Below, piece by piece: positions 10,863 through 33,478 of a stretch of DNA of 39,147 nucleotides. The notes under the pieces were generated by a model. The model was given only the letters and a program-made list of their open reading frames with translations. It was not told the origin of the DNA and searched no databases. Positions within the stretch are counted from its first letter, which is position 1, and each line of letters opens with the position of its first letter. Source of the DNA: Planctomycetota bacterium (lineage in GTDB: Bacteria; Planctomycetota; MHYJ01; JACPRB01); the NCBI GenBank assembly GCA_035649615.1, contig DASRJF010000409.1:1-39147 (forward strand). The letters run 5' to 3'. Position numbers and translations under genes: made by a program.

Positions 10863-10876
10863 GGAAGGGGAACCTC

Positions 10877-11692: not shown

Positions 11693-11791
11693 GACTTCAG
11701 ACTTCGGACTTCAGACTTCAGAAAGAGGTCGTCAGTGGTCAGTTTTCAGGAATCGGGAATCGCTAATCACCAATCGCCAATCGCCAATCGC
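11693..11791. repeat. Two different heptamer tandem arrays (GACTTCA x4; GGAATCG/CCAATCG x6) downstream of fliP
   Basis: gacttca gacttcg gacttca gacttca (11693-11720). ggaatcg ggaatcg ctaatca ccaatcg ccaatcg ccaatcg (11749-11790), followed by ttttt. The two arrays are not complementary to each other. Confidence 0.9.
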
Positions 11792-11843
11792 TTTTTGAAC
11801 GTCGGGAATCGGCAATAGGTGATCGTTCCTGGGGAATCGAGAC

Positions 11844-12107: not shown

Positions 12108-12113
12108 CCGGAC

Positions 12114-13249: not shown

Positions 13250-14298
13250 TGACTGAAACCGAAGTCGAGGACCGGACGGAAGCCCCGACCCCGCGGCGGC
13301 TCCGGGAGGCCCGCAAGAAGGGACAGGTCGCGGTGAGCCGCGATCTCGCCGCCGCGCTGGCGCTGCTGGCCACGGCCGGCGGTCTTCACCTGCTCGGACC
13401 TTGGCTGATGGCCGGACTTCGCGCGGGACTGGGGCGCTCGCTGTCGGGACTTCATGAAATGAACTCCGCGGAGGCCGCCGTTTCCGCGCTGGGCCTCGGC
13501 GGGGAAATGATGGGCGCCGCGGCGCCGATCCTGGTCTTCGCCCTGGCCGCCGGCGTCCTCGCGACGCTGACGCAGGTGGGTTTCATCTTCACGACCGAGA
13601 CCCTCAAGCTCCAGCCGGACCGCCTGGATCCCCTCGGCGGATTCCGGCGCGCGTTCTCCATGCAAACGTTCGTCGGAATCGCGGGAGGCCTGGCCAAGGG
13701 CGCGGTCATCCTGGGAATCCTCGCCGCCTCGCTCTGGCAGGAGCGCGCGACGCTCGCCGGATTGTCAACGCGGCCCCTCTCCGAGGGACTCGCGGTCCTC
13801 ACGGGGTCCGCCGCGGCCCTGTTCACCAAGACCGCGCTCGCCCTGCTCGCGCTCGGAGTGGTCGACTGGGCGTACCGGCGCTGGCAGCACCTCCGCGACC
13901 TGCGGATGAGCCGTCGCGAAGTCCAGGACGAGCTGAGGGAATTCGAGGGCGATCCCGAGATCAAGCGTCGCCGCCGGTCCCACCACGCGCAGCTCGACGA
14001 GACGCGCATGCTCGCGCACGTCCCCGGCGCGCTCGCGGTCGTCACCGACGACGGCGATGTCGCGGTCGCGCTCGGAGGGGAGGGCGGGACGCCGGTCGTC
14101 CTGGCGAAGGCTCGCGGGGCGGTCGCGGACCGGATCCGCGAAACGGCGCTCGGCCACGGCATCCCCGTGCTGGAACGGGCGGACCTGGCCCGGGGGCTCA
14201 ACCGGCGCGGGAAGTCCGGCTCGGAAGTGCCGTCGGGCCTTCGCGAGGGGGCGGCGGAAGTCCTGGCGGTGGCGCGCGAGATGAAAGGCAACGGATGA
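13246..14298 (+). CDS. flhB: Flagellar export switch protein FlhB (NPTH motif replaced by DDGD)
   Basis: The ATG at 13246 gives the N-terminus MMTETEVEDRTEAPTPRRLREARKKGQVAVSRDL. Four TM segments. MSRREVQDELREFEGDPEIKRRRR. C-terminal domain ALAVVTDDGDVAVAL...PVVLAKARGAVADRIRETALGHGIPVLERADLARGL. Confidence 0.9.
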   Translation: MMTETEVEDRTEAPTPRRLREARKKGQVAVSRDLAAALALLATAGGLHLLGPWLMAGLRAGLGRSLSGLHEMNSAEAAVSALGLGGEMMGAAAPILVFALAAGVLATLTQVGFIFTTETLKLQPDRLDPLGGFRRAFSMQTFVGIAGGLAKGAVILGILAASLWQERATLAGLSTRPLSEGLAVLTGSAAALFTKTALALLALGVVDWAYRRWQHLRDLRMSRREVQDELREFEGDPEIKRRRRSHHAQLDETRMLAHVPGALAVVTDDGDVAVALGGEGGTPVVLAKARGAVADRIRETALGHGIPVLERADLARGLNRRGKSGSEVPSGLREGAAEVLAVAREMKGNG

Positions 14299-16367
14299 CG
14301 TTCGACCGGATGACGGACGGGGTGACGAAGCACCGCGACCTGCTTTTTGTCGCGGGGCTCCTCGGCATCCTGTTCATCGTCTTCGTTCCGATGCCGACGC
14401 CGCTCGTCGACCTCCTGCTCGTGGGGTCGATGGGCCTGTCGATCATGGTCCTCCTCGCGTCGGTCTACGCGAAGGAGCCCGCGGGCTTCTCGGTCCTGCC
14501 CTCGGCGCTCCTGCTCCTGACCGCGTACCGGCTCGCCCTGAACATCGCGACCACGCGCCTCATCCTGGGCACGGCGCACGAGCGGGGCACGTCGGCGGCG
14601 GGCGAAGTCATCCGGGCCTTCGGCGAGTTCGTGGGAGGGCACGACCTCATCGTCGGATTCGTCCTCTTCGCGATCCTGCTGATCGTGAACTTCATCGTCA
14701 TCACGAAGGGCGCGGGTCGCATCTCGGAAGTCGCCGCCCGATTCATGCTCGATGCCATGCCCGGCAAGCAGATGGCCGTGGACACGGACCTGAACTCCGG
14801 GGCCATCGACGAGAAAGAGGCGCGGGCGCGGCGCGCGAAGATCGCCAAGGAGGCCGACTTCTACGGCGCGATGGACGGCGCGACGAAATTCGTCCGGGGC
14901 GACGCCATCGCGGCGGTCCTGATCACGCTGGTCAACATCATCGGGGGCTTCCTGATCGGAACCCTGCGCCACGGCATGCCGCTCTCGGAGGCCCTGCAGA
15001 CCTACACGATCCTGACGATCGGCGAAGGCCTCGTCGCCCAGATCCCCGCCCTGATCGTCTCCCTCGGGGCGGGCCTCATCGTGACGCGCGCCACGACGTC
15101 GTCCGATCTCGGCCGCGATTTCCTCGGCCAGATCTTCTCCGAGCGCAAGGCCGTCGCGATCGCCGCGATTTTCCTCCTGGTTCTCGCGCCGACGGGCCTT
15201 CCGTTCCTGCCGCTCGCGGCGGGAGCGGGCCTGCTCGGCGCGATCGTCTGGACGCTCGGCCGCGGCGCGAAGGCCGCCGAGAAGCGCGAAGCCGACCAGC
15301 GCTCCCTCGACGCCGCCGCGCCTCCCGCCCCGGTGTCGGCGGAGCGGCTGCTGCGCGTGGAGCCGCTGGAGATCGAGGTCGGCCTGGGCCTCGTCCGCCT
15401 CCTCGACGCCGGGTACGGACTCGTCGCCCGCATCGAGGCGCTCCGCCGGGAGCTGGCGGCCGACCTCGGCCTGCTCGTGCCCGCGGCGCGGGTCCGCGAC
15501 ACCCTGGACCTCGAATCGACCCACTACCGGATCCGGCTCCGCGGCGTGACGATCGCGAAAGGCGCCCTCCAGGCGGAACGGCTCCTCGCCGTCGACACGG
15601 GCCGCGTGAGCGGACCCCTCGAGGGACTCGCGACGCGCGATCCGATCCAGGGACGCCCGGCCTTCTGGATTTCGGAAGCCGGGCGATCGGAGGCGGAAGG
15701 GTCGGGCTATCGCGTGAGCGACGCGGTGTCCGTCCTCCACGACCACCTGCGCGACGTGCTGCGTCGGAACGCCGCGGACCTGCTGACGCGGGACGACGTC
15801 ACCGCCCTGGTGAAGTCCCTCAAGGAGGCCCGTCCCGCGGTTGTCGAGGAAGTCGTCCCGGCGGTCGTCCGGCCGGGCGAGCTCCAGAAGGTGCTCCGGA
15901 ACCTGCTCCGCGAGGGGGTCTCGATCCGCGACCTGGGGACGATCCTCGAGACTCTGGGAGATTACGGCCCGCGCACGAAGGACCCCGAGATCCTCACGGA
16001 ATACGTCCGCCAGGGACTGGCCGGAACCCTGTGCGCCCGCCACCTGGATCCGGACGGCCGGCTGTACGTCATCACGCTCGATCCGAAGCTCGAGGACATG
16101 ATCCGGGGCGCGACGGAGCGGAACGAGTCCGGCTCCGTCCTGGCGATCGCGCCGTCGCTCCTGGCCGGCATTACGCAGCGCGTGGGTCGCGAGGTCGACC
16201 GCCTGGTCGCCGCCGGACATGCCGCGGTGATCCTCTGCGCCCCCGCGGTCCGGGCGCAGGTCCGCCGGCTGGCCGACATGATCCAGCCCGGGATCGAGGT
16301 CCTGTCCTTCAACGAGATCCTCAGGGACGTTCGCGTCGAGGCATTGGGAATGGTCACCGCGGAGTGA
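14295..16367 (+). CDS. flhA: Flagellar export gate protein FlhA
   Basis: The ATG at 14295 overlaps the flhB stop (ATGA). 690 aa. FVGGHDLIVGFVLFAILLIVNFIVITKGAGRISEVAARFMLDAMPGKQMAVDTDLNSGAIDE, FYGAMDGATKFVRGDAIA. Large cytoplasmic C-terminal domain. Confidence 0.95.
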   Translation: MTFDRMTDGVTKHRDLLFVAGLLGILFIVFVPMPTPLVDLLLVGSMGLSIMVLLASVYAKEPAGFSVLPSALLLLTAYRLALNIATTRLILGTAHERGTSAAGEVIRAFGEFVGGHDLIVGFVLFAILLIVNFIVITKGAGRISEVAARFMLDAMPGKQMAVDTDLNSGAIDEKEARARRAKIAKEADFYGAMDGATKFVRGDAIAAVLITLVNIIGGFLIGTLRHGMPLSEALQTYTILTIGEGLVAQIPALIVSLGAGLIVTRATTSSDLGRDFLGQIFSERKAVAIAAIFLLVLAPTGLPFLPLAAGAGLLGAIVWTLGRGAKAAEKREADQRSLDAAAPPAPVSAERLLRVEPLEIEVGLGLVRLLDAGYGLVARIEALRRELAADLGLLVPAARVRDTLDLESTHYRIRLRGVTIAKGALQAERLLAVDTGRVSGPLEGLATRDPIQGRPAFWISEAGRSEAEGSGYRVSDAVSVLHDHLRDVLRRNAADLLTRDDVTALVKSLKEARPAVVEEVVPAVVRPGELQKVLRNLLREGVSIRDLGTILETLGDYGPRTKDPEILTEYVRQGLAGTLCARHLDPDGRLYVITLDPKLEDMIRGATERNESGSVLAIAPSLLAGITQRVGREVDRLVAAGHAAVILCAPAVRAQVRRLADMIQPGIEVLSFNEILRDVRVEALGMVTAE

Positions 16368-16370
16368 TTG

Positions 16371-17492
16371 ATGCTCATCAAGAAATACGCCGGGGCGAAT
16401 GAGAAGGCCGTGCTCGCGCGCGTCCGCGCCGATCTCGGTCCGGACGCGGTGATCCTCCACTCGAGCCTGGTCCGCCCCGCGGGGCTGGCCCGGCTTTTCC
16501 GGGGGCCGCGGTTCGAGGTCGTCGCGGGCGGCGGCTTCCGCATCGTGCGCGACTACCCGAACGGATCGCCGCCGGTCTCGCCCCCGACGATCCGGAGGGG
16601 CGCGGCGGCGCCGGCGATCTCTCCCGAGCAGCTCCAGAAGGAGATTTCGGAGATCAAGGCGATGATCGCCCGTCGCGCGCGCGCGGCGGCCCTCACGTCG
16701 GCCACGCCCGAGCTCCACGAGGAGTTCGCGGCGCTCTCGACCGCCCGGGTGTCGGACGACCTGGCGCGATCGCTGTTCCAGCGGATCACGGAGCGCCTCT
16801 CCGCCGCCGCCCTCCGCGACCGGACGGCCATCCGGGAGGCGATCCGCGGCGCGGTGAAGGCGTCGATCAAGTGCGCCGACGGCATCGCCCTCCAGCCGGG
16901 CCGGTGCGTCAAGGTCGCCTTCATCGGCCCCACGGGCGTCGGCAAGACGACGACGATCGCCAAGCTGATCTCGATCTACGCCTACCGGGGACAGGAAGTC
17001 GCGGTCGTGACGAACGACACCTACCGGATCGCGGCCTCCGAGCAGATCAAGCGCGTGGCCCAGCTCGTGGGCGTCCCCGTCCGCGTCTGCCGCACGGGGC
17101 CCGAGATGACGGAGGCCGTGCAGGGCTTCTCGGACCGGGACCTGGTCCTCATCGACACCGCCGGCCGCAGCCAGAAGGACGACGGGAAGATCGACGACCT
17201 GTGCGCCACGCTCAAGTCGGCCGCGCCCGACGAGGTCCACCTGGTCCTCAGCTCGACGACGAACTCCGAGACGCTCGTGGACACCGTGAAGCGCTTCTCG
17301 CCCTGCGGCTTCACCAAGATCGTCATCACGAAGCTCGACGAGGCGATGAAAGTCGGGCTCGTCCTGGACGTCCTGTCGAAGGTCGACAAGCGCCTGTCGT
17401 TCATCACGACCGGGCAGGAGATTCCCCGCGACATCGAGATCGCGGACAGCGACCGCATGACGTCGCTGATCCTCGGGGAGGAGACGCTGTGA
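16371..17492 (+). CDS. flhF: Flagellar SRP-type GTPase FlhF
   Basis: ATG at 16371 (the track start at 16368 is TTG). G-motifs FIGPTGVGKTTTIAKL, LIDTAGRS, ITKLDE. Follows flhA. Confidence 0.9.
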   Translation: MLIKKYAGANEKAVLARVRADLGPDAVILHSSLVRPAGLARLFRGPRFEVVAGGGFRIVRDYPNGSPPVSPPTIRRGAAAPAISPEQLQKEISEIKAMIARRARAAALTSATPELHEEFAALSTARVSDDLARSLFQRITERLSAAALRDRTAIREAIRGAVKASIKCADGIALQPGRCVKVAFIGPTGVGKTTTIAKLISIYAYRGQEVAVVTNDTYRIAASEQIKRVAQLVGVPVRVCRTGPEMTEAVQGFSDRDLVLIDTAGRSQKDDGKIDDLCATLKSAAPDEVHLVLSSTTNSETLVDTVKRFSPCGFTKIVITKLDEAMKVGLVLDVLSKVDKRLSFITTGQEIPRDIEIADSDRMTSLILGEETL

Positions 17493-18705: not shown

Positions 18706-19482
18706 ATGGCTCTGGTGACGAAACGGCCGAAGGAAGAGCTGACGCGCCTCTGGGGTGAGTTCAAGCGCGGCGGCGACGTGGCGATCCGGAACATCCTCGC
18801 GGAGGAGTACCTTCCGATCGTCAAGTACGTGGCCGACCGCATGATCGAGCGGTTGCCGCACAACGTCCAGGTCGAGGACCTGTGCGGGTCCGGGATGTTC
18901 GGGCTGCTCGACGCGATCGACAAGTTCGACATGTCGCGCGGCGTGAAGTTCGAGACGTACTGCGTGGGCCGCATCCGGGGCTCGATCCTGGACGACCTGC
19001 GGAACATGGACTGGGTGCCGCGCCTCACCCGCGCGCGCTCGAACAAGCTCGAGGCCGCGTACGTCAAGCTGGAGCGCGAGCTCGGCCGCGCCCCGACCGA
19101 CGTCGAGGTCTCCCGCGAGATGAAGATCTCGATCGAGGAGCTCGACAGCCTCCACCGCGAGGTGAGCGGCGCCTCGATGATCCCGATCGTCCACCGCCCC
19201 CTCGAGAAGGAGCAGGAGCCGCTCGGCGTCGACGTCATGGAGGATCCGCGGGTCGAGGGCCCCCTCTCCGACTCCGCGAAGCGCGACTTCCTCGAGTTCT
19301 GCCACAAGAAGCTGTCGACGAAGGAGCGGAACATCCTGAGCCTGTACTACTACGACGATTTGACACTCAAGGAGATCGGCCGTATTTTGGGCCTCTCGGA
19401 ATCGCGCGTGTGCCAGCTGCATGCGAAGCTCGTCACCCGGTTGAGAGCCTACCTGGCCCGATCCCAAGGAGAATCCAGCTAG
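18706..19482 (+). CDS. fliA: Flagellar sigma factor FliA (sigma-28, FliA/WhiG family)
   Basis: Region 2 YLPIVKYVADRM...EDLCGSGMFGLLDAIDKFDMSRGVKFETYCVGRIRGSILDDLR. Region 4 LSTKERNILSLYYYDDLTLKEIGRILGLSESRVCQLHAKLVTRLR. RBS gaggggggg upstream. Confidence 0.9.
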   Translation: MALVTKRPKEELTRLWGEFKRGGDVAIRNILAEEYLPIVKYVADRMIERLPHNVQVEDLCGSGMFGLLDAIDKFDMSRGVKFETYCVGRIRGSILDDLRNMDWVPRLTRARSNKLEAAYVKLERELGRAPTDVEVSREMKISIEELDSLHREVSGASMIPIVHRPLEKEQEPLGVDVMEDPRVEGPLSDSAKRDFLEFCHKKLSTKERNILSLYYYDDLTLKEIGRILGLSESRVCQLHAKLVTRLRAYLARSQGESS

Positions 19483-22927: not shown

Positions 22928-23012
22928 CTTCCACTGGCGGAGCAGTGGGTCCTATAAGTCTGATACTCACGTCCGATAAGGCCGCTACCGTTGCGCTGTC
23001 TACCGTGGCCGG

Positions 23013-23051
23013 AAACAAAAAGAGCCGCGCCTGATCCATCAAGCGCGGCTC
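23013..23051 (-). terminator. Intrinsic-terminator-like hairpin (minus strand) in the left island junction
   Basis: gagccgcgc (23022-23030) / gcgcggctc (23043-23051): a perfect 9-bp stem with a 12-nt loop. On the minus strand it is followed by TTTTTGTTT (complement of 23013-23021). Confidence 0.45.
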
Positions 23052-23589
23052 GACGTCCGCTTTCTCGGCGGCGACCGGAGGTTGCCCATTCTTCGGCTCC
23101 GCCCGGCTGCCTAGCAGCCCATTGCTCTATGTCGTTCCTCACTTCCTGGCGTCGTCCTCCCTGAAGATCCCCCGCCTTCACAAGCGCCCTCGTCCAAACT
23201 CGGCTGACCCCGAACCCGACCGGGCCGGGCGCTACCGCGTCCCGAACCCCCTCCAGGAGGGCCTGGGCAGGTACACCTAGCTTGATGTCGTCACACTCTA
23301 GCCGGCTCTCCCAAAGCCGCAACTTTTCAAAGATACCAGCTTCACAGCATAGCATTTCGCCATCCGTGGACTTGACGGCATCGAAATTCGCATTAAAGCC
23401 GTAATCACCGCCCTTCCGACCAAACCGTCCTTACACTGCGTTAATGTCGTTCCTTCATTTACCTCGAATCTTCAAAACGGCACTCATAGACCCATGTTCT
23501 TTAGCGTAGGATCTCAGTACCACTTCCAAATCCTCGCAAGCTGGAAGATTGTTCCGGCGCACATGAACACCGAATCGTGATAGATCACG

Positions 23590-24651
23590 TTAGTCCTCTT
23601 CCCTGCGAAGGACTCGTTCTGCCATCGCAGCGAGCCGCTCTCCATTGCCAGTGGCCTTCATGCGCGCCGCATAATCTCCAATTGCTTTTCGCATCTGAAT
23701 AGAGTTATTCGAGGATCGCAATAGCGCCCGAAGCGCCGCGCCACCAGCAAACTCATCCTCTGCCCTAAGCTTTGACAGTAGCTCAATAATCACCCCTTCT
23801 CCACCCCCGCTGGGGTCCTTCAAGATGAGACGTACGATAAACTCAACAAAGACATTGTCGTCCCGTAGCAAGTACTGTACCAAGAGTGTGTATTGGGTTC
23901 GAATCGGCTCAAACGGACCATTTCCGTTGGAGGTAAGTTTTTCAAGAAGCGTGTAGATGATGGGTGAATAGTATCTCGGGCCTGTCGGCCCGAGGAGAAA
24001 ACTGAGCAGCTCCTTCATGTCCAGGTCACTTGGCGGTGGTGTCAGAGTCCGGCAAGGGCACTTGACGGTGTGCGAAACGCGAAATCCAACTCCATATGGC
24101 AGCACTTCATCCGCGCGGCGACTTGGATACTCTATGCGCAGGTGCAAATCTCCCAGGCTTGCGATTGCCCCTTGCCTCACCCACTCGTGTTGGTCAGATT
24201 TGACTATCGAGAGAAGCAGATCTATGGAGGCGCGATGGAAACTGGCACACTCGCTGCCCCACACAGGTATGACTGTCCGTACATGGACCACCTTGTATAC
24301 AAGTTCCTGTAGACTCTCTACGGGTCTTCGCACCACTTCCAAGGTGAATTCACTTGGTACCCTCGATCCCATCAAGCAAGAGGTCTTATAATCCTCGTAT
24401 GCCGCCTTTGCGACGGCTTCGAGTTGTGGAAAGAAAGTGGTGGACCGGAATTCGCTTTCCGGAATCTTTGTGATTGATTCTACATCTAGCCTTGAGGGCT
24501 GGGAAGGCTGAGTGGCAGCTGCACCGGCCCTAATTCCTTGCGAGGGATCGCCGTATACAGGGGTCGGGCGGCGGCATGCAGGCAATACAAGTACGAACAG
24601 AGTGAGGCCAATCCTAGACACGGTCAACGCGGACTTCCTAAATACTATCAT
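23590..24651 (-). CDS. Island gene I: probable lipoprotein with helical (ARM/HEAT-like) repeats
   Basis: The ATG at 24651 gives MIVFRKSALTVSRIGLTLFVLVLPAC (lipobox-like LPAC). The C-terminal two thirds are helix-rich (LLSFLLGPTGPRYYSPIIYTLLEKL, LLVQYLLRDDNVFVEFIVRLIL, IIELLSKLRAEDEFAGGAALRALLRS). Confidence 0.6.
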   Translation of the reverse strand: MIVFRKSALTVSRIGLTLFVLVLPACRRPTPVYGDPSQGIRAGAAATQPSQPSRLDVESITKIPESEFRSTTFFPQLEAVAKAAYEDYKTSCLMGSRVPSEFTLEVVRRPVESLQELVYKVVHVRTVIPVWGSECASFHRASIDLLLSIVKSDQHEWVRQGAIASLGDLHLRIEYPSRRADEVLPYGVGFRVSHTVKCPCRTLTPPPSDLDMKELLSFLLGPTGPRYYSPIIYTLLEKLTSNGNGPFEPIRTQYTLLVQYLLRDDNVFVEFIVRLILKDPSGGGEGVIIELLSKLRAEDEFAGGAALRALLRSSNNSIQMRKAIGDYAARMKATGNGERLAAMAERVLRREED

Positions 24652-24696
24652 GATAGTGGCCGAAACGTGCGCACATGTAGCCAATATTCGGATTGA

Positions 24697-25884
24697 TCAA
24701 TAGAGATCCTCTGGGGTGCGGATTTGCGCCTTGAAATCTTCTTTAATGGCCATACCCGGCATTGGCCCAATGGGTGGTACGTCTATTGAGTGAAAGACCT
24801 CCCATGTATCGTTACAATCTTCATTATCTAGAGCAGTGAGAGTCACGCGTACAGCCAACGTGATCTTCCCTCCAAATATCACGGCGAAATCGGTTCTGTC
24901 TGATTTGCGATTGACCTCTTCGCCCTTGTCTTCTCTTGCCTTCCTGTTGCGACTCAGCGCCGTTAGGCCGTCCTTGTGCCAATCGTCTGTGGAGGTCATG
25001 TCTGAAATGGCACGCTTCAGCCCTTTGCCCCAGGTTCCTTGCCAAAGACACTTGATATCCACGCTTTCCCATGTGGTGTCTTCGCTAATCAACGCATTGA
25101 ATTTGACGTATTCGTATTCCCACGTCCAACCTCTTGGGTGCTTATCGGTTTTCTGCTGCCAGCTGTTCATGTAGACGCCTAGCAGATATAGGGACACGTC
25201 TGCTTTCCAGCCTTTTACAAATAGGTACTTTGCAAAATAGTTCGCCTCTATGTCTACATGTCCAGTTATCCTTTGATTATCTCTCTTGTCATAGTATGTT
25301 CCAAAATCTGAGAGTCTGAGTTTGGTATGTATTCGGCTGATCTTGAGAGCGCAATTACAGGTCGTAGTATCTCCGCCGAAATACTGAGGGCTTGGAGGTG
25401 CCAATTGTAGATGTGTAACCGGATGAGATAGGGCCGAGAGGTCAACAGCGAACGTGCTTAGTAATCGAGGCTGATGCTGACTTCCAGTCTGCAAGGGAGC
25501 ATGTGGCGGCGCTGGGGCGGGCAGCTGGGGTGGGACGGTTGCCGGCATCCCCAGACCTTTAAAGGAAGCGGGAGGAACAATGAGGGGCGATTCTGATGAC
25601 GGTCTGCTAACTGCTTGATTGACAATGGGGATGTGATGCGGCAGCATCGGCAATTCGTTGTCGTAGGAATGCTGAATGAACTTCGTGTAGTCATCTGTCG
25701 GCGGCGTTGGAGTTGCATCCATTTTCAGAGGGGGTTCCTCCTCATACCCTTGAGGCAGAGCGAACTGAGATGGCGGAGGAGTTGGATTACTCCCGGGAAG
25801 TTGTTGGTTTGCCGCTTGCTGTTCTACCTGATACTGAGCGAGCCGTCTTGCGTACTCCTCAGCTTCGCTTCGTGAGATTGCCAT
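24697..25884 (-). CDS. Island gene H: modular protein (Pro/Gln-rich N-terminal region, internal VDLSAL motif, beta-rich Trp-rich C-terminal domain)
   Basis: RBS aagggtgg, then ATG at 25884. 395 aa. Residues 1-140 are Pro/Gln-rich. FAVDLSALSHPVTHL at aa 145-159 (DNA about 25402-25452). CxC (TTCNCAL). The C-terminal domain contains WTWEYEY, CLWQGTWGKG. Confidence 0.65.
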   Translation of the reverse strand: MAISRSEAEEYARRLAQYQVEQQAANQQLPGSNPTPPPSQFALPQGYEEEPPLKMDATPTPPTDDYTKFIQHSYDNELPMLPHHIPIVNQAVSRPSSESPLIVPPASFKGLGMPATVPPQLPAPAPPHAPLQTGSQHQPRLLSTFAVDLSALSHPVTHLQLAPPSPQYFGGDTTTCNCALKISRIHTKLRLSDFGTYYDKRDNQRITGHVDIEANYFAKYLFVKGWKADVSLYLLGVYMNSWQQKTDKHPRGWTWEYEYVKFNALISEDTTWESVDIKCLWQGTWGKGLKRAISDMTSTDDWHKDGLTALSRNRKAREDKGEEVNRKSDRTDFAVIFGGKITLAVRVTLTALDNEDCNDTWEVFHSIDVPPIGPMPGMAIKEDFKAQIRTPEDLY

Positions 25885-26036
25885 TAACCACCCTTACTAC
25901 AGAGTCTTACGATCTGTGGATTCCCATTCCGGAGCATGAAAACTCCGTCGTCTTACGTATGTTACTGATTTCCTCTCCCACTTGTCATCTAAATGGTCCT
26001 CGTCGTGCAAATACCGCATACCTCGCTTGTCGGCGG

Positions 26037-27458
26037 CTATTTCTTCTTAGGATTGCAAATCACATGCATTTCCAGCTGTGCACCCAGCGACGCTTGATCA
26101 CCTGTGGCCGTTGCTAGTATTCGTAGCACCCACTTGCGACCTGAAACAGTTGGCGTGCTTTCAGGGTGCTGCTTCCTGTATTCTGCAAATCTGTCTTTGA
26201 ATTCCTTTGAACCGAACGACTCTGCTTCTGTCAATTCGAATTTGCGTTCGAATGTTGCACCTCCTGCGGCGTCGGTCGTTATCACTGCATCCTGGGATTT
26301 CATGCCAACAGATACCCATACGTCTGAGGCAGAGTGGCCACCGAACTTATAGGCCTGATAAAGGGCCCCCGTGCTACCCACTGCGATTCTGGTTGATGGG
26401 GGACCATTCTTAATGGAGGCCGTGAATGACACCCAGTAGGGGCCACCCTTTGCAAAAGTCTGGCACTTGACATTTGTGATGTCTAATTCCATCTGTGTGC
26501 CGGTGACTTTTCCGAAGTTATCTGTTAGTACGGCATAAGCTGTCCTAGTGCACGCACACTTTGTCCTGCCTGTCTTGTCGATGATATTCCCTTTTGCTGT
26601 GATGATGATGCCATACGTTTTCGCACCCTTCTTTACTTCAGGTATTCCCTTATCAATGTCATCCAGGGTGAAGTCAGTTGAGAATGACAACTCCGCTTTG
26701 CTTTCCTCCGATGTCTGTCCGTCGCAATGCAATACCTTAGCTGAGAGCTGTCGTTCGCCGGCGACAACAACAAATGGATCGCCCCAAGGAAATACCATCG
26801 TCGTCTTACAGTTGGGGTGTTTATTCTCTATGTGCACTTTGAACTTGAGGGTCTTCTTTTCTCCGCCTTCAACCTTTGGGTCAGTTATTCTAATAGAAAA
26901 GGTGCACGCAGGAACATCTACATCATCATCCTGCTTCCAAGGAATAGAATAGGAGCCGGATAAGAACGAAGGACCAAGAATCACAACTTCCGGCAATCCG
27001 CCGTTTCCGGCCATGGAGGTTCCAGAGAAATCAATGAGAAAGTCACTACAGTAGATTGGTTTCCACCCCGTGTCAGTAATCTGAGTCGCCCCAGGCACGA
27101 GTGGATCAACTGAAGGGGGCTGGAGTGGCCGAACTGGGGGGTAGCTAGGGGCAGAGTACCCAACTTGCAAAGGCTCTACGATTTTCTGGAAAAGCGAAGA
27201 TGGCGTATTTTGAAACTGTTGGCTATGGCTTTGTGATCTTGGCAAGGGGCTGGGGGGAGAATACGGAGCGGGTCCCGCGTACGCATTCATTGGAGTATCT
27301 GTCAACGCAATCGATGCATGAATTGCTGTTTCAGAATCGATGAAAGGCGAGGAGGGAGGCGGCTGATGACCGATGGCTGCCGGGTCACCTGGAGTATACT
27401 CCATGTTCGGTGGCAAATGGCTCGCATTGTTTCGACGCTCAGCATCCTCGGTTTCCAT
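26037..27458 (-). CDS. Island gene G: modular protein (Pro-rich N-terminal region, beta-rich C-terminal domains), architecture parallel to gene H
   Basis: RBS AGGA 5 nt before the ATG at 27458 (the track ORF extends to 27500). Pro/Ser-rich first about 130 aa. FLIDFSGTS...VVILG segment. CxC (KCACTR). Long beta-rich remainder. No family recognised. Confidence 0.6.
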   Translation of the reverse strand: METEDAERRNNASHLPPNMEYTPGDPAAIGHQPPPSSPFIDSETAIHASIALTDTPMNAYAGPAPYSPPSPLPRSQSHSQQFQNTPSSLFQKIVEPLQVGYSAPSYPPVRPLQPPSVDPLVPGATQITDTGWKPIYCSDFLIDFSGTSMAGNGGLPEVVILGPSFLSGSYSIPWKQDDDVDVPACTFSIRITDPKVEGGEKKTLKFKVHIENKHPNCKTTMVFPWGDPFVVVAGERQLSAKVLHCDGQTSEESKAELSFSTDFTLDDIDKGIPEVKKGAKTYGIIITAKGNIIDKTGRTKCACTRTAYAVLTDNFGKVTGTQMELDITNVKCQTFAKGGPYWVSFTASIKNGPPSTRIAVGSTGALYQAYKFGGHSASDVWVSVGMKSQDAVITTDAAGGATFERKFELTEAESFGSKEFKDRFAEYRKQHPESTPTVSGRKWVLRILATATGDQASLGAQLEMHVICNPKKK

Positions 27459-27594
27459 TAGTGTCCTTAGCAATAAGATCTTTCTCATGCACAGAATCAA
27501 CCATGACTAGCGCTGTTTGGCACAATGCCAGTCTCTTCTCAATTAATAACTAGACACAGGGACCGCACTTTGGGGTCATATTCCGGTAGCATAG

Positions 27595-29055
27595 TCAATG
27601 GTCGCTACCGAAGCGCCACGCCTCGATTAGCTTGTCTGCCATGCATCGCACCGTCTCATCGCCTGAGTGCCTTAGTCTCATCACCTGCGGCTTTGCCTCC
27701 CGGGCGTCTAGACGAACAATTGCGCGGAGCAGAGCACGTTGAGCTTCTTTGTGTTTATTGATTACCGCCCAGTTGATAGCTTTCCGAAGTTCTAGGACTA
27801 AGTCAATTTCAGACTCATAGTCGATTTCATTGGCGCCAGCCTCGACCAGCGATGGATCTGCTGACCCTAGCGCCATGATAATCCATGTGCGCCTCAAACA
27901 TACGGGGAAACCCGCAATCGTCAGCCCATCGTTCTCTTCATGCTTTGGAGTGTCAAATAAGGCGATCACTCCAGCGGTATCAGTGCTACTCTTCTGCCAA
28001 GTGAGTAAAAGGCCGGATCCATCAGGAATCCAAGTGAGTTCCTGGCACATCGCAAAGCCGCGGGCCGGAACTATGTGCTCAATTCCAGAATACAAATGAC
28101 GGATGCGAATTGTGGTGAATTCTGGCAGGAGCTCATCACTCTTGCGTGGAGTATTAAGAAAGGCCACTCGCTCGCCGCTTGGATCTATCGCGGGCGCCCA
28201 TTTCAAGTCCCTGTCAGAGGTGAGCCTCGTCACCATGGTGCCGTAAGGATTGGTCACGTATACGTCAGTGTAAGCAAGTCCCGATCTGCCAATGAAAGTG
28301 AAAAGACGGCTACTGGCATCCCACGCACTCGCAAGAATCGCGTGCGGCGTAGAATCACATGGACCTACGGATTTGTGAGTTGGGGAACCGAAGGCGAGGA
28401 ACGAATGAGTAGCCGTATCAACATTCACGAGACATACGCGCGATACCGGGCAATCTCCGGCACGTTCAAAGAGCCCTTCGATTGCCAGGTGCTTCCCATC
28501 AGGGCTCCACGACACACGTGGCCTCTCCTTGGAACTTAAGACGTGATGAAGCCTAAGTGGAGTTGGCGACCCGTTGCCACGATTCATGAACACCGTCCCG
28601 TCAATGACCGATATGCAGTCTGTATTCGGATCAATGCCTGTAATGTAGCCGAGCCCCTTCTCTTTCTGTAAATCCGCGGAGCCACGCATAGCGATGCGGC
28701 TGTTAATGCTCGCGAGCCAACATGTAGTGTCAGCGCCGACGCTTTTCGAATGTGCCCGATAGTTCCGTCGAAACTCTTCAATCTGCCGACGCAAATCAGG
28801 AGCGTATTTACTAGCTGTCGATGGTGTCAACACTGTTTCAAGATCGATCATCACCGCTTGTAGTGGTCTCTCTCGTTCACACAGAATGGAAAGTCGTGTG
28901 TTGGGACCATCGGCAGAGTTTCCCGTTGTAGGTGCCGTAGAATCCCGGTGATGTAATAGAGCCTCGCCTTGCTCATGTGCCCTGTTAAGCTCAAATGAAT
29001 GCAGTCGTTCTACTAATACTAGCAGCGTCAATAGTAGTATGAAGTGCTTCAACAT
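27595..29055 (-). CDS. Island gene F: secreted TolB-like beta-propeller protein with a C-terminal helical domain
   Basis: The ATG at 29055 gives the signal peptide MLKHFILLLTLLVLV. PD40/TolB-type blades (VSWSPDGKHLAIEG, WAPAIDPSGERVAFLN, LTWIPDGSGLLLTW). C-terminal helices (LVLELRKAINWAVINKHKEAQRALLRAIVRLD). Confidence 0.65.
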   Translation of the reverse strand: MLKHFILLLTLLVLVERLHSFELNRAHEQGEALLHHRDSTAPTTGNSADGPNTRLSILCERERPLQAVMIDLETVLTPSTASKYAPDLRRQIEEFRRNYRAHSKSVGADTTCWLASINSRIAMRGSADLQKEKGLGYITGIDPNTDCISVIDGTVFMNRGNGSPTPLRLHHVLSSKERPRVSWSPDGKHLAIEGLFERAGDCPVSRVCLVNVDTATHSFLAFGSPTHKSVGPCDSTPHAILASAWDASSRLFTFIGRSGLAYTDVYVTNPYGTMVTRLTSDRDLKWAPAIDPSGERVAFLNTPRKSDELLPEFTTIRIRHLYSGIEHIVPARGFAMCQELTWIPDGSGLLLTWQKSSTDTAGVIALFDTPKHEENDGLTIAGFPVCLRRTWIIMALGSADPSLVEAGANEIDYESEIDLVLELRKAINWAVINKHKEAQRALLRAIVRLDAREAKPQVMRLRHSGDETVRCMADKLIEAWRFGSDH

Positions 29056-29145
29056 GTGCTTTTTGCCATCACTAGCCGTTATGACACTCAGAGGGCAATG
29101 AGATCCCAACGCGCATTTCACCATGCACTTCGCGCGGCACATGCC

Positions 29146-30060
29146 TCATGCTCCTGATACTCCGTAGCGTACGCAGGATACCAGGCATTCCATGCCTAGT
29201 GTGACGAAGGAGGAACGCAAGTTGGCGGGGTCCCTCAGAGCACTAAGATCAATTGAAGAACCTGCGAGGAAGAAGGCACCATCCCCCGAAGTCACGCTGG
29301 ATTCCGCAACTCTCTTCTCAGCGATCTCGAAGGCGGAGAGAAACGACGCCGGGCTGAATGCCGGCGTCGAAGATACTTGTGCGGGGGTAGCATACGTTGC
29401 AACCGGGGCCTGAGCCGCGAATTGTGGGAGTGGAGGAGGGGGAAACCCCGGAGGCAGTGGAGGCCCTATTCCTGGAAGGATAGGCGGAGGGGCTCCGGTG
29501 GTCGCCGAAACCGCACCACTCGTCATAGGTGCGGCTTGGTTTGAAGCAGGAGGATTCTGGTCGTACGCCGCCAGGCGCTGTTCAAATTCAGTGAATGCAG
29601 GCTCGGAGGCGAAAAGCACTCCTTGCTCGTAGCGAACACGGGCGATACCACTCTTGCGAGAATAGGCTGAACCAAACTGCATTCCAGCCGGGTTACTCCA
29701 GAAATACAGAGTCTTTACGCCGTGTTTCTGGCGAAGCTCAGCAACCAGATTATCGATGAATTGATTGCGTGGAATCGACAAGTTTAAACCAGGGGTGCGA
29801 CCTCCAACATAGTGTTCGAGGTCGTACACGGCCAGCGCCGCATAGATTTCGCTTAAAGCCGTTTGGACTTCGGCCTGGGAGGATTTCCAATTGTAAATGT
29901 CCTGAGTTGAGCCCCCGGAGATATAAATGCTGTCGGGCGTACCCAGTGGGTAATCATCCATGCCTCCGGAGGCCGGCGCTCGCTTTAGATTGATACCGTA
30001 TTTAGTATTTGCGGCGCTCACCTTTTGGTCAACGAAATAGTTACGATTATAGTCAGGCAT
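29146..30060 (-). CDS. Island gene E: unknown N-terminal domain + poly-Pro linker + C-terminal SALR-PANL module shared with gene D
   Basis: RBS GAGGA, then ATG at 30060. 304 aa. Linker GAPPPILPGIGPPLPPGFPPPPLP. C-terminus GDGAFFLAGSSIDLSALRDPANLRSSFVTLGMECLVSCVRYGVSGA. Confidence 0.65.
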   Translation of the reverse strand: MPDYNRNYFVDQKVSAANTKYGINLKRAPASGGMDDYPLGTPDSIYISGGSTQDIYNWKSSQAEVQTALSEIYAALAVYDLEHYVGGRTPGLNLSIPRNQFIDNLVAELRQKHGVKTLYFWSNPAGMQFGSAYSRKSGIARVRYEQGVLFASEPAFTEFEQRLAAYDQNPPASNQAAPMTSGAVSATTGAPPPILPGIGPPLPPGFPPPPLPQFAAQAPVATYATPAQVSSTPAFSPASFLSAFEIAEKRVAESSVTSGDGAFFLAGSSIDLSALRDPANLRSSFVTLGMECLVSCVRYGVSGA

Positions 30061-30253
30061 TGATCAAGTCCTCACGCTTAGCAATCCAAGGTTATTCCAC
30101 TTGGTGCGGAACTCCGGTGCGATGTTATGTCGCAGGGGCGGACATGCTCTCTAGGCGCACTTGGCAACTCCAATAGCTGATTCGTCCGCCTCAGCGCGTC
30201 AATTGGCTCCAGGATTGACAGGAAGTACCTCATCAGTTCGCCCGGTCCCCGCA

Positions 30254-30505
30254 CTAAAGCCTCGAAAGCCCTTCACGGATGCAGGAGGTCAGATTCTCCG
30301 TTCCCAAGAGCACCGGTGTTGCATCCAGATTCGCTGGGGATCGTAGGGCGCTCATGTCCACCGTGGCTCCCTGGAGGAGAAACGACGTTCCGCTCATGCC
30401 GGGCTGCATGCCGAGACCACCGTTTTGGAGGCCGAGGCTATTTAATGCGAAGGGGTTGCCGTTCGTCATTTCCGTTCCATTGCAGCCGCATCCGTTCGGG
30501 CCCAT
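30254..30505 (-). CDS. Island gene D: small Gly/Asn-rich protein consisting mostly of the SALR-PANL module
   Basis: Strong RBS AAGGAGG 6 nt before the ATG at 30505. 83 aa. C-terminus GTSFLLQGATVDMSALRSPANLDATPVLLGTENLTSCIREGLSRL aligns with the C-terminus of gene E. Confidence 0.6.
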   Translation of the reverse strand: MGPNGCGCNGTEMTNGNPFALNSLGLQNGGLGMQPGMSGTSFLLQGATVDMSALRSPANLDATPVLLGTENLTSCIREGLSRL

Positions 30506-30520
30506 CGAGTCCTCCTTTCG

Positions 30521-30853
30521 CTAGACTCCCGCAAGAAGGTCCAGAAGCTCCTGCTTTTCCTTGGGAGTCAGCACCTTCTTCTGCCGCCGTTTTTCCCTCA
30601 GTGCCGACAGCCGCAGGGCACGACTCTCCTGGATCGACTTTTGCTTCGTTCGTTGCTTGGCCGCGGCTTCAAGCTTCGCTCTGGGCTTGGGTCCAGGCTC
30701 CACCAAAGCCCGCTCAAGCACTTGGCCGGCGCCGTCGACCGCCAAGAACCAGACCGAGCCTTCCTCGTCCTCCTCGCGGAAGTAGGTTGCGCCCACGCGG
30801 GAGCTGACCACCGGGGCCGGCCCTTTCCAGGCGGTCCTCTTCACTTTGATCAT
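30521..30853 (-). CDS. Island gene C: small protein with a beta-rich N-terminal half and a highly basic helical C-terminal half
   Basis: The ATG at 30853 is 1 nt after the gene B stop. 110 aa. C-terminal KPRAKLEAAAKQRTKQKSIQESRALRLSALREKRRQKKVLTPKEKQELL. Confidence 0.55.
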   Translation of the reverse strand: MIKVKRTAWKGPAPVVSSRVGATYFREEDEEGSVWFLAVDGAGQVLERALVEPGPKPRAKLEAAAKQRTKQKSIQESRALRLSALREKRRQKKVLTPKEKQELLDLLAGV

Positions 30854-30854
30854 T

Positions 30855-32162
30855 CTAAACCCTGGCCATCCGATAGAGCGACAATTCCCCCGTGAATCCG
30901 AGGGGGCTGTTGGTCAGAACGTCGATTTGGGTGATGTTCGCCCCCGCGTTGTTCCAGAGCCCAGCATAGGAGGAAAGCTGGGCCACGACGCCTCCCAAGT
31001 CCTGAACTTCGTTGCTGAATACGAATCGAAGGAGGCCAGTTTTCGCCACCATGTGGGCCACGAACCAAGATTCCAGGAGGTTGACTTGGGGTTCCGCAAC
31101 CCTGAGATCTCCGAATACGGCTCCTGCCAAGACAACCCCGGTCGCCACAATCTTCTGGGTGGAGTGAATTCCAAGCGGGGGCAATCCGTTGGGCTGTAGC
31201 GTGATCACGGCCGGGGCGATTGGATCGAGGTTCTTCACCCGGCCGGTCAGGACGTACTGCTCGTCCGCGTCGCCATTGAGCCCGAAGAAGGTCACCAGGA
31301 TGATGGGCGCCACGATCCGCTTCGTCTCGATGAGCTGAAGCCGGTTGAAGTCCAGAGCAAGGGGAGAAGGAACCTGGTAGTCGTTCAGCGTCTGCTCGAG
31401 ATAGACGAGCGCCTCGTCCCACCAGCATGTAACCAGGATAGACGCGTCCACCTCGATGCGCCACGTCAGACTTGTGATGGGGGGCGGAATTATCCCCGAG
31501 ACGGACAGGGTTTCGAAGTTCCCGCTGCCAGTGTGCGGGCTCGACACGAACACGGGAACGCCGTTGGCCGCAACGACCAGCGTCACAGCGCCCGGCCTTG
31601 CGGTTTTTACCTTGCACGAGAACGTCAGATTCCTGCCTGCGAACTCCGCGCAATTCGGAATGACGTCTTGATCAATCTGGACGACCCCCGTGGCCGGAAC
31701 GGTCACGTCGACCTTCATGGAATAGAGGCCGCTTACCACGTCTGGAGGATTCGTTTCTCGAGAAACCGTGTAGCCAGGAGCGGCCAGGTCGCGTGCTATC
31801 CAGCCCTTTGTCAGCGGCGTTCCGCTTGGAGGATTTGTGAAAGTAGTCGCCTCCGTCCAGACTTCGCAGCCGGGGTTGATCACATAGTTGACCTGGTCCG
31901 TGCTGGCAGGAGGAGGCGGCGGCTGCACTGATCCGCCGCCGCCCGCGTACGCGGGAAGGTCAATGCACTGTGTCAGGAACGGCTGCTGCGGCGGTGCCGC
32001 TGGGGGCTTCAACGGAAGCTGATCCGTCAACGTACGAAGCGGCGGGGTCAAAAGTGGAAGCGGCTCCAATGCCGAGAGCAGGCCTGCTTGCAGCAGGGTA
32101 AACGCCTGCCCCCGAATTGCCTCGTCGGGAGTCTTGGAGATCTTGGTCGTCACAAGGTTCAT
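30855..32162 (-). CDS. Island gene B: jelly-roll/carbohydrate-binding-module-like structural protein (fibre/decoration-like)
   Basis: The ATG at 32162 is 2 nt after the gene A stop. 435 aa. Pro-rich linker (aa 40-90). The central segment NYVINPGCEVWTEAT...PLTKGW...NLTFSCKVKT...GNFETLSVSG...WWDEALVY resembles CBM4/9- or galactose-binding-like domains. A second beta-rich C-terminal domain follows. Confidence 0.5.
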   Translation of the reverse strand: MNLVTTKISKTPDEAIRGQAFTLLQAGLLSALEPLPLLTPPLRTLTDQLPLKPPAAPPQQPFLTQCIDLPAYAGGGGSVQPPPPPASTDQVNYVINPGCEVWTEATTFTNPPSGTPLTKGWIARDLAAPGYTVSRETNPPDVVSGLYSMKVDVTVPATGVVQIDQDVIPNCAEFAGRNLTFSCKVKTARPGAVTLVVAANGVPVFVSSPHTGSGNFETLSVSGIIPPPITSLTWRIEVDASILVTCWWDEALVYLEQTLNDYQVPSPLALDFNRLQLIETKRIVAPIILVTFFGLNGDADEQYVLTGRVKNLDPIAPAVITLQPNGLPPLGIHSTQKIVATGVVLAGAVFGDLRVAEPQVNLLESWFVAHMVAKTGLLRFVFSNEVQDLGGVVAQLSSYAGLWNNAGANITQIDVLTNSPLGFTGELSLYRMARV

Positions 32163-32164
32163 TC

Positions 32165-33130
32165 CTAGGGTGTCACTGAGCTATTCGTTCTGATGAGCAT
32201 CTGGGCCGCGGCCACTTCGGATTCCAGGACCAGGCTCACGTTCATGAAAATCCGGTACGTGGTGTTGGCGGTTGCGGCTCCGAGAACTTCCTTCACGCGG
32301 ACGATCTTGCTCCCCCAAACCGCGGGCGTGATGCCGTAGAGTCCGCCCCGGCCCAGGACAAGGGCGTAGATTCCGATGCCGTTGCCTTGGCCCCCAATCG
32401 TGTCCGTAGTGGAAATGTTGTCGTCAATGAGGATGGGGATTCCATCGTAGGTTGGAGTCAGCCTCTGCTTCATGCCTCCATTACAATCAGGCACATTCAT
32501 TAGGGCGTAGTGAGGCCTCAATCCCTTGTCATAGTGAGCCTTCAAGATGTTCTTGTAACCCAGCGTGTGAGTGACCAGGACGTGAGGCCTGCCGCTATTC
32601 GCCTTGATCTGTCCCACCAAGCGGGCAAGGTCATCCAGAACAAGCAGAAATCCCCCTACGTCCTTTGGCAGGATCTTTTGGGCTGCAGGCAAGAGTGCTA
32701 CAATGCCGTTGAACTGCTCAAAGTCTGGTCCTGCTGAGACGCCCGCATATAGCTTGGCGCAAAACTCATAAAGGAATCGCCGGATCGCCGTCTCGAGCTG
32801 GACTCCGACTTGTGAATTTACGTTCGATTCGGTATTGGCTGCAAAATCCATTACGATAACGTCTTGAACGAGCTGCTTGAGCTCGAATGAAACGCTCGTG
32901 GGGATCGTTTTCCCTTCGGTCGTAGCAAAGGCACCGGTGGCCTTGTCCCAGAGCGGCGCAATGCCAAAGTCGCCCGAAGTGGCGGCCCGGTTGATTCTGA
33001 GGGAGTCGCCGTCCACAGGAAAAAACGGCAAGACTTCCAGGCTCTGAACGGGCTTTGGTGCGTTCTCGATGATGTGCGCAAGAAGCTGGTCATTGGACAA
33101 CAGAAGCGATTGAGCTTTCGTCAAGGTCAT
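32165..33130 (-). CDS. Island gene A: putative HK97-fold major-capsid/encapsulin-like shell protein
   Basis: AGGAG RBS (complement of 33139-33143) 8 nt before the ATG at 33130. 321 aa. The order of elements recalls HK97-type capsid proteins: MTLTKAQSLLLSNDQLLAHIIEN, VSFELKQLVQDVIVMDFAANTESN, long helix QVGVQLETAIRRFLYEFCAKLYAG, RPHVLVTHTLGYKNILKA, YDGIPILIDDNIS, YRIFMNVSLVLESEVAAAQMLIR. This is pattern recognition only, no search was run. Confidence 0.5.
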   Translation of the reverse strand: MTLTKAQSLLLSNDQLLAHIIENAPKPVQSLEVLPFFPVDGDSLRINRAATSGDFGIAPLWDKATGAFATTEGKTIPTSVSFELKQLVQDVIVMDFAANTESNVNSQVGVQLETAIRRFLYEFCAKLYAGVSAGPDFEQFNGIVALLPAAQKILPKDVGGFLLVLDDLARLVGQIKANSGRPHVLVTHTLGYKNILKAHYDKGLRPHYALMNVPDCNGGMKQRLTPTYDGIPILIDDNISTTDTIGGQGNGIGIYALVLGRGGLYGITPAVWGSKIVRVKEVLGAATANTTYRIFMNVSLVLESEVAAAQMLIRTNSSVTP

Positions 33131-33478
33131 GGATTGCTCTCCTAATCGATACGAAGTTCTTTCAAGAAATGTGTTAGGTGGATCCAAGCAGTGCGATAGC
33201 GGGTGATGCGAGGTATGCGACGAAGAAATTTGCTTCGGGCTCGATGCAGAAAGTAGGGGCGCATGTCCTCACCGTAACCGCCTTCACCACGATCGGGCCC
33301 CTACTTCCCGATCGGAAGGCCGTTCAGGCGCGTTTCTCAGACTCTGAACTTCACTAACCCTATGACCCTATACGCATTGCGGTCAACAGTTCGTACAGAA
33401 AAAGCGCTCAAGAAAAATGAAAAAAATGGGGGTTGGATAGTGGAGTCCATAAGTTACGGATTTCGTAATCCGTACCGC

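Follow-up and report, generated by a model that had tools for sequence, protein, structure and literature searches.

A C-terminal module shared by two proteins encoded beside a capsid-type gene in Planctomycetota is a candidate shell-docking peptide

Why would two proteins of different size and make-up end in the same peptide, and do so beside a capsid gene? The question is posed by a 39,147-nucleotide stretch of a Planctomycetota bacterium (contig DASRJF010000409.1; below, the window), in which nine co-directional genes, A to I, all on the minus strand, form an island. The products of genes D and E end in a common module of ~45 residues, and upstream of them gene A encodes a capsid-type protein. 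The answer that we consider most probable, albeit tentatively, is argued by analogy: the module would dock D and E onto an A-built shell or vertex complex in the manner of scaffold or cargo-loading peptides. The features on which the argument rests are as follows.

32165-33130 (open reading frame reaches 33187), minus strand: gene A, 321 residues, predicted HK97-fold major-capsid-type shell protein
30855-32162, minus strand: gene B, 435 residues, with an N-terminal peptide, a Pro-rich linker and a beta-rich fibre-like C-terminal domain
32070-32132 (residues 11-31 of B), minus strand: B N-terminal anchor peptide, TPDEAIRGQAFTLLQAGLLSA, found in 10/10 related loci
30521-30853, minus strand: gene C, 110 residues, small conserved protein after B
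30254-30505, minus strand: gene D, 83 residues, with an MGPNGCGC N-terminus, a Gly/Asn/Gln-rich spacer and the C-terminal module
30257-30394, minus strand: D module, 46 residues, SGTSFLLQGATVDMSALRSPANLDATPVLLGTENLTSCIREGLSRL; BLASTP against E 1e-12, profile score 94 bits
29146-30060, minus strand: gene E, 304 residues, with a helical N-terminal domain, a Pro-rich linker, a conserved helix and the module
29356-29550 (residues 171-235 of E), minus strand: E Pro-rich linker, 65 residues, 28% Pro and 20% Ala, of low predicted local distance difference test score (pLDDT)
29305-29355, minus strand: E conserved segment, (F)SPASFLSAFEIA / SPASFLSAFEIAEKRVA, between linker and module
29149-29286, minus strand: E module, 46 residues, GDGAFFLAGSSIDLSALRDPANLRSSFVTLGMECLVSCVRYGVSGA; BLASTP against D 1e-12

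The initial annotation had proposed that D and E share a C-terminal module that aligns residue for residue, and this similarity survived statistical testing. The two copies (41-46 residues) aligned without gaps, with 22 of 41 residues identical and 31 of 41 positive (BLASTP E=1e-12), and when a module profile was compared with the 643 six-frame segments of the window only D and E matched (E ~1e-27 each). The DNA of the two copies is 47% identical, their third codon positions are saturated, and the same codon is used at 4 of the 22 identical residues. Because synonymous sites are saturated and the ratio of nonsynonymous to synonymous substitution rates (dN/dS) between D and its ortholog in the related locus L020 is 0.17, the module is an ancient duplication kept by purifying selection; the codon evidence and the dN/dS value ruled out both recent gene conversion and a pseudogene fragment. 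The module was found in every D ortholog (P0029-P0032, P0034 and L003:326-583) and in every E ortholog having its C-terminus on the contig (P0002, P0003 and P0033), the L020 copy of E (L020:2176-) ending at the contig edge before that point. It contains no transmembrane segment and a near-invariant cysteine, replaced by serine in the L004 D protein. As had been remarked at the outset, it is unlike the known encapsulin targeting peptides of the GSL type, having no GSL-type motif.

The layout is that of a domain followed by a disordered Pro/Gly-rich linker and then the conserved terminal peptide. In E the poly-Pro linker previously described ahead of the module is indeed present and gives way to a second conserved segment, SPASFLSAFEIAEKRVA, unremarked in the initial annotation, which at 0.73 identity across E orthologs ranks above all other E segments and contains a helix predicted by AlphaFold (residues 243-252). 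Module and upstream helix together form the best-conserved part of E (0.62 identity versus 0.13-0.5 elsewhere). The AlphaFold model consists of a helical domain of moderate confidence (residues 1-170) and a region of very low confidence (residues 175-304), and owing to its very low pLDDT (31-41) the module is not predicted to fold alone. Our structure models are of low confidence because the alignments are shallow. The E model gave no PDB fold match, and neither a coiled coil nor a dimerisation signature was predicted for the protein, which is 100% identical to NCBI entry VFC90_13735, annotated as a hypothetical protein. A possible homology of the E N-terminal domain to 312-residue proteins of L007 and L008 was not significant and was dropped. 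The description of D as little more than the module proved mostly right, but the D N-terminus (MGPNGCGC...NGNPF) is also conserved, its first eight residues (30482-30505), MG(P/S)NGCGC, being kept in all orthologs.

That the module is a common domain was ruled out. When 1.84e9 representative proteins were searched exhaustively with HMMER, only the D and E families carried it. From 5.8e9 clusters a word-indexed search likewise returned D and E orthologs only, and Pfam, PHROGs, NCBIfam and PADLOC gave nothing for either protein, PHROG scaffold homology included. No relative of the module or of A was present among 2.9 million IMG/VR contigs. Five other HMMER matches (P0035-P0039) were dropped as homologs, as they are internally repetitive proteins with single repeats at chance level; the best single repeat of P0036, GGTVDLSDLRSPDNLD, scored 15.8 bits, which is the chance level in that library, and P0037 is a leucine-rich-repeat protein. 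The "otherwise unrelated proteins" to which the module had been said to be appended amount to just two conserved families. A scan of GTDB genomes gave one metagenome-assembled genome (MAG) with two copies of the locus and a scan of JGI metagenomes gave three loci. Ten further loci were retrieved, and only ~ten loci exist, several of them on short contigs.

Wherever the contig is long enough, the module adjoins the A-B(-C) capsid-gene core, and D and E lie directly downstream of it in the window, L003, L004/5, L019 and L020. The module is confined to the clade in which A is at least 78% identical to that of the window (the window, L019, L020, L003, L001 and L004/5). Within this clade L004/5 narrows the choice of partner. 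Its A is 83% identical and the module is kept, yet C is absent and the B C-terminal domain is different, so A and the B N-terminal region are the only conserved candidate partners encoded in the locus.

In the sister clade (L006, L007, L008, L017 and L018), where A is ~50% identical, each locus encodes a pair of proteins, a large one and one of small or medium size, that end in a different C-terminal element of ~45 residues, module-2, with the pattern (P)PWT.L.I.VDP.GS...A....IDG..AVRG. Module-2 follows long low-complexity regions (L007:12220-13455 and 13489-14988; L008:5775-7010 and 7026-8513; L017:11874-12332 and 12357-13682; L018:5662-6363; L006:13418-13789 and 13808-14950). Hence the module type tracks the shell clade. 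By eye the D/E module and module-2 have the common pattern aromatic-x-x-x-x-VD-x-S ... G-x-N-x-V-R-G; we do not claim homology (hhalign P=0.11 local, 0.98 global), and relations among the different short motifs of these loci rest on position and pattern rather than on statistics. Immediately ahead of the small module-2 protein lies the gene of a separate small protein whose N-terminus, MACCEGCAGG, is rich in Cys (L018:5462-5665; L006:13226-13399). The sister clade has a third element, an N-terminal W.W(I/V)TGW...HG.RQ.LPA that stands ahead of variable C-terminal domains (L007:19131-20267, L008:10257-11324, L008:13392-14477 and L006:14968-16185). These domains include an SLT lytic transglycosylase, whose Pfam match (5.9e-5) lies above the family cut-off, and DUF2515. 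The layout of these proteins resembles that of polymorphic effectors.

The capsid-fold gene that the initial annotation placed next to the module is a phage-type HK97 capsid gene, its product matching the PHROG 212 major head protein (1.5e-14). A also matched NCBIfam MCP_gp7_epsi_15 (1.8e-6, below the family cut-off), and in tblastn it was 27-29% identical along its full length to the capsid proteins of Yuavirus-like and Acinetobacter siphophages. About 25 A homologs were present in the 5.8e9 clusters. There was no Pfam match at E<1, so A is not Linocin_M18/PF04454, and a profile of 25 A homologs returned no encapsulin from the PDB at E<10. The AlphaFold model of A is weak (pLDDT 59). In a Foldseek search its seven best PDB matches were all Family 2 encapsulin shells (E 3e-11 to 2e-8; the Family 2 matches include 8t6r, 8wol, 9bje, 6x8m, 9bhu and 9bix), with the PDB phage capsids ranking behind at ~1e-4. 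Judged from the profile matches and the model, A has the HK97 fold. Three loci carry tandem A paralogs that are 46-55% identical (L006:6799-7758/7820-8773, L017:6268-7242/7284-8252 and L018:958-1929/1933-2910).

Comparison with Pfam, PHROGs, NCBIfam and PADLOC revealed neither a terminase nor a portal, protease or tail tube gene in the island, the 39-kb window or eight to ~ten related loci, and the accessory proteins of the window and related loci contained no true Walker A motif. The only genes of phage packaging or tail type were those of fibre-like proteins. An encapsulin locus likewise has no packaging or tail genes nearby. The capsid, portal and large terminase combination of a tailed-phage head module was absent from the window and all related loci; in phages Effie and AN14, by contrast, portal and large terminase are both present, and the capsid gene of A-related phages sits in a canonical terminase-portal-scaffold-capsid-tail module. 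The absence of portal and terminase argues for a protein-only shell.

Gene B carries the system's most widely conserved short element, a peptide of consensus (S/T)P(D/E)EAI.G..FTL..AG(L/F/Y)L(G/S). Across loci the gene encoding it always follows A (L004:5560-, L006:8783-, L007:17281-, L008:8542-, L012:5930-, L013:10990-, L017:8277-, L018:2911- and L020:3-, plus the window). The peptide is followed by a Pro/Glu-rich linker and then by unrelated C-terminal domains of 60-700 residues, some of which match tail-fibre PHROGs; one locus encodes a Collar-domain protein. As a universal shell anchor this peptide is a stronger candidate than the D/E module. C orthologs, which usually follow B, were found in L003, L007, L008, L018, L019 and L020. 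In the position that C occupies in the window, L004, the locus most closely related to it, has a SAM-dependent methyltransferase gene (L004:6658-7341), between B and D.

Two further island proteins, G and H, had been put forward as internal echoes of the module.

26037-27500 (likely start ATG 27458), minus strand: gene G, 487 residues, with a disordered Pro-rich N-terminal region, a motif and a unique C-terminal domain
26997-27068, minus strand: G motif, GWKPIYCSDFLIDFSGTSMAGNGG, aligned with H and with L001 and L004 proteins
24697-25884, minus strand: gene H, 395 residues, with an N-terminal helix, a Pro-rich region, a motif and a unique C-terminal domain
25408-25479, minus strand: H motif, QHQPRLLSTFAVDLSALSHPVTHL, a weak echo of the D/E core VDLSAL..P

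The H segment (residues 141-159, 25408-25464) reads as described and is the best match of the module profile outside D and E, but the match is weak (4.3 bits, E=0.77 over the six-frame window; empirical p=0.0095 in a shuffle test confined to the seven other island proteins). The echo claimed in G was not supported, as the D/E profile gave no significant match to G in the window search. Instead, G, H, L001:1107-2786 and L004:8865-10610 are linked to one another through their N-terminal 150-190 residues (E 1e-8 to 6e-6). Residues 30-186 of G are related to L001:1107-2786 (E=1.6e-6), the C-terminal domains being unrelated, and residues 1-162 of H are related to L004:8865-10610 (E=1e-8). The family layout is a short helix, ~100 Pro-rich residues, an aligned motif, P.(F/Y/L)...F.(I/V/L)D(L/F)S(G/A)(T/L)(S/T) (also written F..DF.IDLSGTS), and then unrelated C-terminal domains. 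By these alignments G and H belong to a second family having a conserved region on a disordered tether with its own motif, of which the H version, VDLSALSHP, simply happens to look most like the D/E core.

The remaining features of the island are these.

27595-29142, minus strand: gene F, 515 residues, with weak hints of a PD40/TolB beta-propeller and a hydrophobic stretch at the N-terminus
23590-24684, minus strand: gene I, 364 residues, probable lipoprotein (LVLPAC, lipobox-like) with a HEAT-like repeat
22995-23279, strand unassigned: remnant of an insertion sequence (IS), the 3' end of an rve-type element at the downstream island border

The island spans ~10.5 kb (~22995-33400) at a guanine-plus-cytosine (GC) fraction of 0.49-0.60 versus ~0.70 in the flanks, which are ordinary chromosome, with flagellar export genes, fliA, surE, bioF and bioA on the left and gatB plus genes for a lipoprotein and a HEAT-repeat protein on the right. 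A conserved block downstream proved to be the IS remnant. Over its 285 nucleotides it is 75% identical to L001:3883-4168, a stretch overlapping the end of an intact transposase gene, and the mismatches lack codon periodicity; the remnant consists of the last ~40 transposase codons plus the IS end and adjoins bioA. Mobility genes flank some of the other loci, namely L004 (tyrosine recombinase), L008 (resolvase) and L001 (transposase). In one Planctomycetales MAG (CAYXVY01) the A locus occurs twice on different contigs (L012 and L013), with A 96% identical, small downstream genes near-identical and upstream context different, which suggests a mobile or duplicated element. Neither tRNA, tmRNA nor Rfam RNA was found in the window or at the island borders, and there were no convincing direct repeats flanking the island as attachment (att) sites. 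The shell system is a horizontally acquired, uncharacterised Planctomycetota operon with no portal and no terminase. Outside the island, window positions 3798-17492 hold a flagellar type III export cluster (FliF, FliH, FliI, FliO, FliR, FlhB, FlhA and an FlhF-like signal recognition particle GTPase), followed by a FliA-like sigma factor at 18706-19482.

Several loci encode a regulator directly upstream of the capsid gene: a sigma-54 activator (enhancer-binding) at L007:8775-9794, L008:2187-3218 and L018:1-177, an XRE-type helix-turn-helix protein at L004:3495-4049 and a protein resembling sigma region 4 at L006:6077-6778. The window has no such regulator upstream of A, nor any match there to the sigma-54 promoter consensus. 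L007 has TGGCCGA repeats and a candidate promoter, TGGCAT-N5-CTGCT, below the score cut-off. In the 5' leader upstream of A (window ~33230-33330) lies an inverted repeat, GTAGGGGC...GCCCCTAC, with an inner CTTCCGATCGGGAAG hairpin. L004 has a similar GTAGGGGC...GCCTCTAC arrangement upstream of A, and in both the window and L004 a TTGACC -35-like box lies further upstream of the repeat.

Which known system does this locus most resemble? Family 2 encapsulin cargo is loaded via disordered terminal domains with short motifs, terminal or internal, that lie in long disordered Pro/Gly/Ala-rich terminal regions (PMC8049743, PMC8346489), and Family 2B encapsulins have two shell paralogs that form two-component shells (PMC8346489). 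The A system is like the Family 2 encapsulins (SrpI/CyD; 2-methylisoborneol (2-MIB) and geosmin synthase systems) in having an HK97 fold without portal or terminase and disordered terminal partner regions with short motifs (here in E, G, H and B), and the tandem paralogs of three A loci are like those of Family 2B. It differs in that the known Family 2 cargo enzymes were not found in the loci (desulfurase, terpene cyclase, polyprenyl transferase or xylulose kinase), in having no cyclic nucleotide (cNMP) domain, in encoding tail-fibre-like proteins and in a D/E tag that is C-terminal and ~45 residues long. Moreover, A has no sequence-level match to any encapsulin family (Pfam, NCBIfam and PDB profiles), so that it lacks SrpI-like sequence membership and the similarity is at the fold level only.

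The GSL-type peptides of Family 1 encapsulins have the same layout of cargo domain, flexible linker and C-terminal peptide, and one peptide is common to different proteins encoded beside the shell gene, as in D and E. The D/E module is unrelated to them in sequence, has no (T)VGSL-type motif and is ~four times longer, and A is not a Family 1 shell protein. Phage scaffolds of the P22 gp8 type are extended proteins with a C-terminal coat-binding element of ~35-45 residues, encoded in a head module beside an HK97-fold capsid gene. D and E are alike in having a C-terminal conserved element of similar length beside such a gene. However, their genes follow that of the capsid protein, neither protein is rich in coiled coil, the element is on two different proteins, and the portal, protease and terminase of a maturation cycle are missing; E also has a globular helical N-terminal domain, unlike a scaffold, which is an elongated helical protein whose gene immediately precedes the capsid gene. 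At the sequence level A is related only to the major capsid proteins of Yuavirus/M6-like and epsilon15-like siphophages and podophages, and the canonical terminase, portal, minor capsid protein, scaffold, capsid and tail module of those phages is missing around A. Portal-less, tail-less mini HK97 entities of 5-12 kb have been described from metagenomes (bioRxiv 10.1101/2025.06.18.659913). They have no terminase, portal or tail genes, some have lysogeny or integration genes, the classical encapsulin Pfam domain is over-represented among their capsid proteins, and Planctomycetota are not mentioned in that paper (bioRxiv 10.1101/2025.06.18.659913). The island is likewise small and HK97-fold without packaging or tail genes, but A has no encapsulin Pfam domain and its family and the module are absent from IMG/VR.

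The comparison to encapsulin cargo-loading peptides and phage scaffold C-termini made in the initial annotation therefore holds in part. The layout, the capsid linkage, the lack of packaging genes, the tandem paralogs and the Family 2 fold match agree with such an organisation; the want of an encapsulin-family sequence, the fibres and the H and G echoes do not. By analogy, the system would work like an encapsulin or scaffold docking system, while failing sequence membership in Families 1 and 2 and lacking the portal plus terminase of a prophage. In the mechanism that we propose, the operon would supply the shell protein A, the fibre-like B with its N-terminal anchor peptide and C, followed by D, E and the G/H-type proteins. 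D and E would carry the same ~45-residue docking peptide at the C-terminus on a flexible tether. The peptide most likely folds only upon binding and would attach both proteins to an HK97-type shell built by A, the presumed partner. The likely docking site is the inner surface of the shell, as for phage scaffold C-termini and encapsulin cargo-loading peptides, so that D and E would end up inside the particle and act as assembly (scaffold-like) or fixed cargo components.

Several observations weigh against this proposal. That each locus has a single D and a single E looks more like a set of fixed structural or assembly parts than like variable cargo, and ~45 residues is long for a Family 1 targeting peptide. 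To our knowledge no encapsulin carries fibre-like proteins; the fibre-like B and the SLT-domain protein of a related locus, L008, point towards an extracellular virion-like particle more than towards a metabolic compartment. Such a particle may have its action outside the cell, and D and E could sit at vertices or fibres instead of inside. The sequence relatives of A are phage capsid proteins, no encapsulin family of Pfam or NCBIfam matches it, and BFVD viral capsid proteins match its model at ~1e-8; the Foldseek ranking that favors Family 2 is itself soft, since the model is poor. Finally, the H and G motifs cannot be shown to descend from the D/E module.

If the module docks elsewhere on the particle, the fibre or vertex complex would be the site, with D and E as external or vertex accessories that bind the clade-specific N-terminal part of B (PQQPFLTQCIDLP). 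We regard this as unlikely. In its favor, the first ~76 residues of B are 74-78% identical among the window, L020 and L004 despite the unrelated L004 C-terminal domain, this segment co-occurs with the D/E module, both contain a near-invariant Cys, and B-type proteins have tail-fibre and Collar domains. However, A is equally conserved in the same loci and the module Cys is not strictly kept, being Ser in the L004 D protein. It is rather improbable that capsid attachment is not needed at all and that the module is a hetero-association element through which D and E bind one another, or through which D acts as a small competitor or regulator for the E site. Such a role would suit the finding that every locus of either clade encodes exactly two module-bearing proteins, a small one and a large one, and the fact that D has little beyond the module and its Cys-rich tip, but it leaves the strict capsid-core linkage and the switch of module type with A clade unexplained, and no coiled-coil or dimerisation signature is predicted.

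Two further readings are disfavored by the signs of selection, the synteny across divergent loci, the lack of exporters and the restriction of the module to two families. That the island is a decaying prophage head module, and the D/E similarity a leftover of partial duplication without present function, seems highly improbable. The low GC and border IS remnant of the island, the recombinase, resolvase and transposase genes of L004, L008 and L001 and the phage relatives of A would fit decay, but the dN/dS value and the retention of the module despite saturated synonymous sites would not. Nor would the A-B-C-D-E order, which is held across loci in which A is 40-87% identical, the dedicated regulators upstream of the capsid gene, the retention of packaging or tail genes in none of the ~ten loci, or the lack of any A or module relative in IMG/VR. 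Least credible to us is a C-terminal export or sorting signal, type-I-secretion-like or Planctomycetota-specific, that is independent of the shell. The module does occupy a C-terminal position after Gly/Asn-rich (D) or Pro-rich (E) low-complexity sequence, and the neighboring genes F and I look exported. However, no locus encodes an ATP-binding cassette (ABC) exporter, membrane-fusion protein or sortase-like protein, a general signal would be expected on many proteins rather than on two families in 1.84e9, and the module has no transmembrane segment.

Shell docking of D and E remains the reading that we prefer. A more far-reaching version of it, improbable as a whole, is a new kind of HK97 particle, a protein-delivery or bacteriocin-like vehicle, in which a closed, portal-less and genome-less shell would bear B as receptor-binding fibres held by their N-terminal peptide. 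Proteins would be loaded into it through a small number of docking elements, of which the D/E module is one; the others would be the N-terminal region of G and H and, in sister clades, module-2 and the N-terminal W.W.TGW element. Some of the loaded proteins would be cell-wall-active (SLT), and dedicated regulators, in some loci a sigma-54 activator, would switch the system on.

The family is very rare: 15 billion sequences include ~25 shell proteins and ~10 proteins that bear the module, all without annotation, and domain-based screens would miss it. If the module is a shell-docking tag, the locus would represent a new HK97 protein-shell lineage in Planctomycetota that groups with phage capsids by sequence and with Family 2 encapsulins by predicted fold, and that combines its own unrelated targeting peptides with fibre-like proteins. 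Such a lineage would provide a concrete intermediate in the virus-to-encapsulin transitions now under debate, add a new orthogonal tag-and-shell pair to the means of encapsulating proteins and supply a candidate capsid-based protein-delivery particle.

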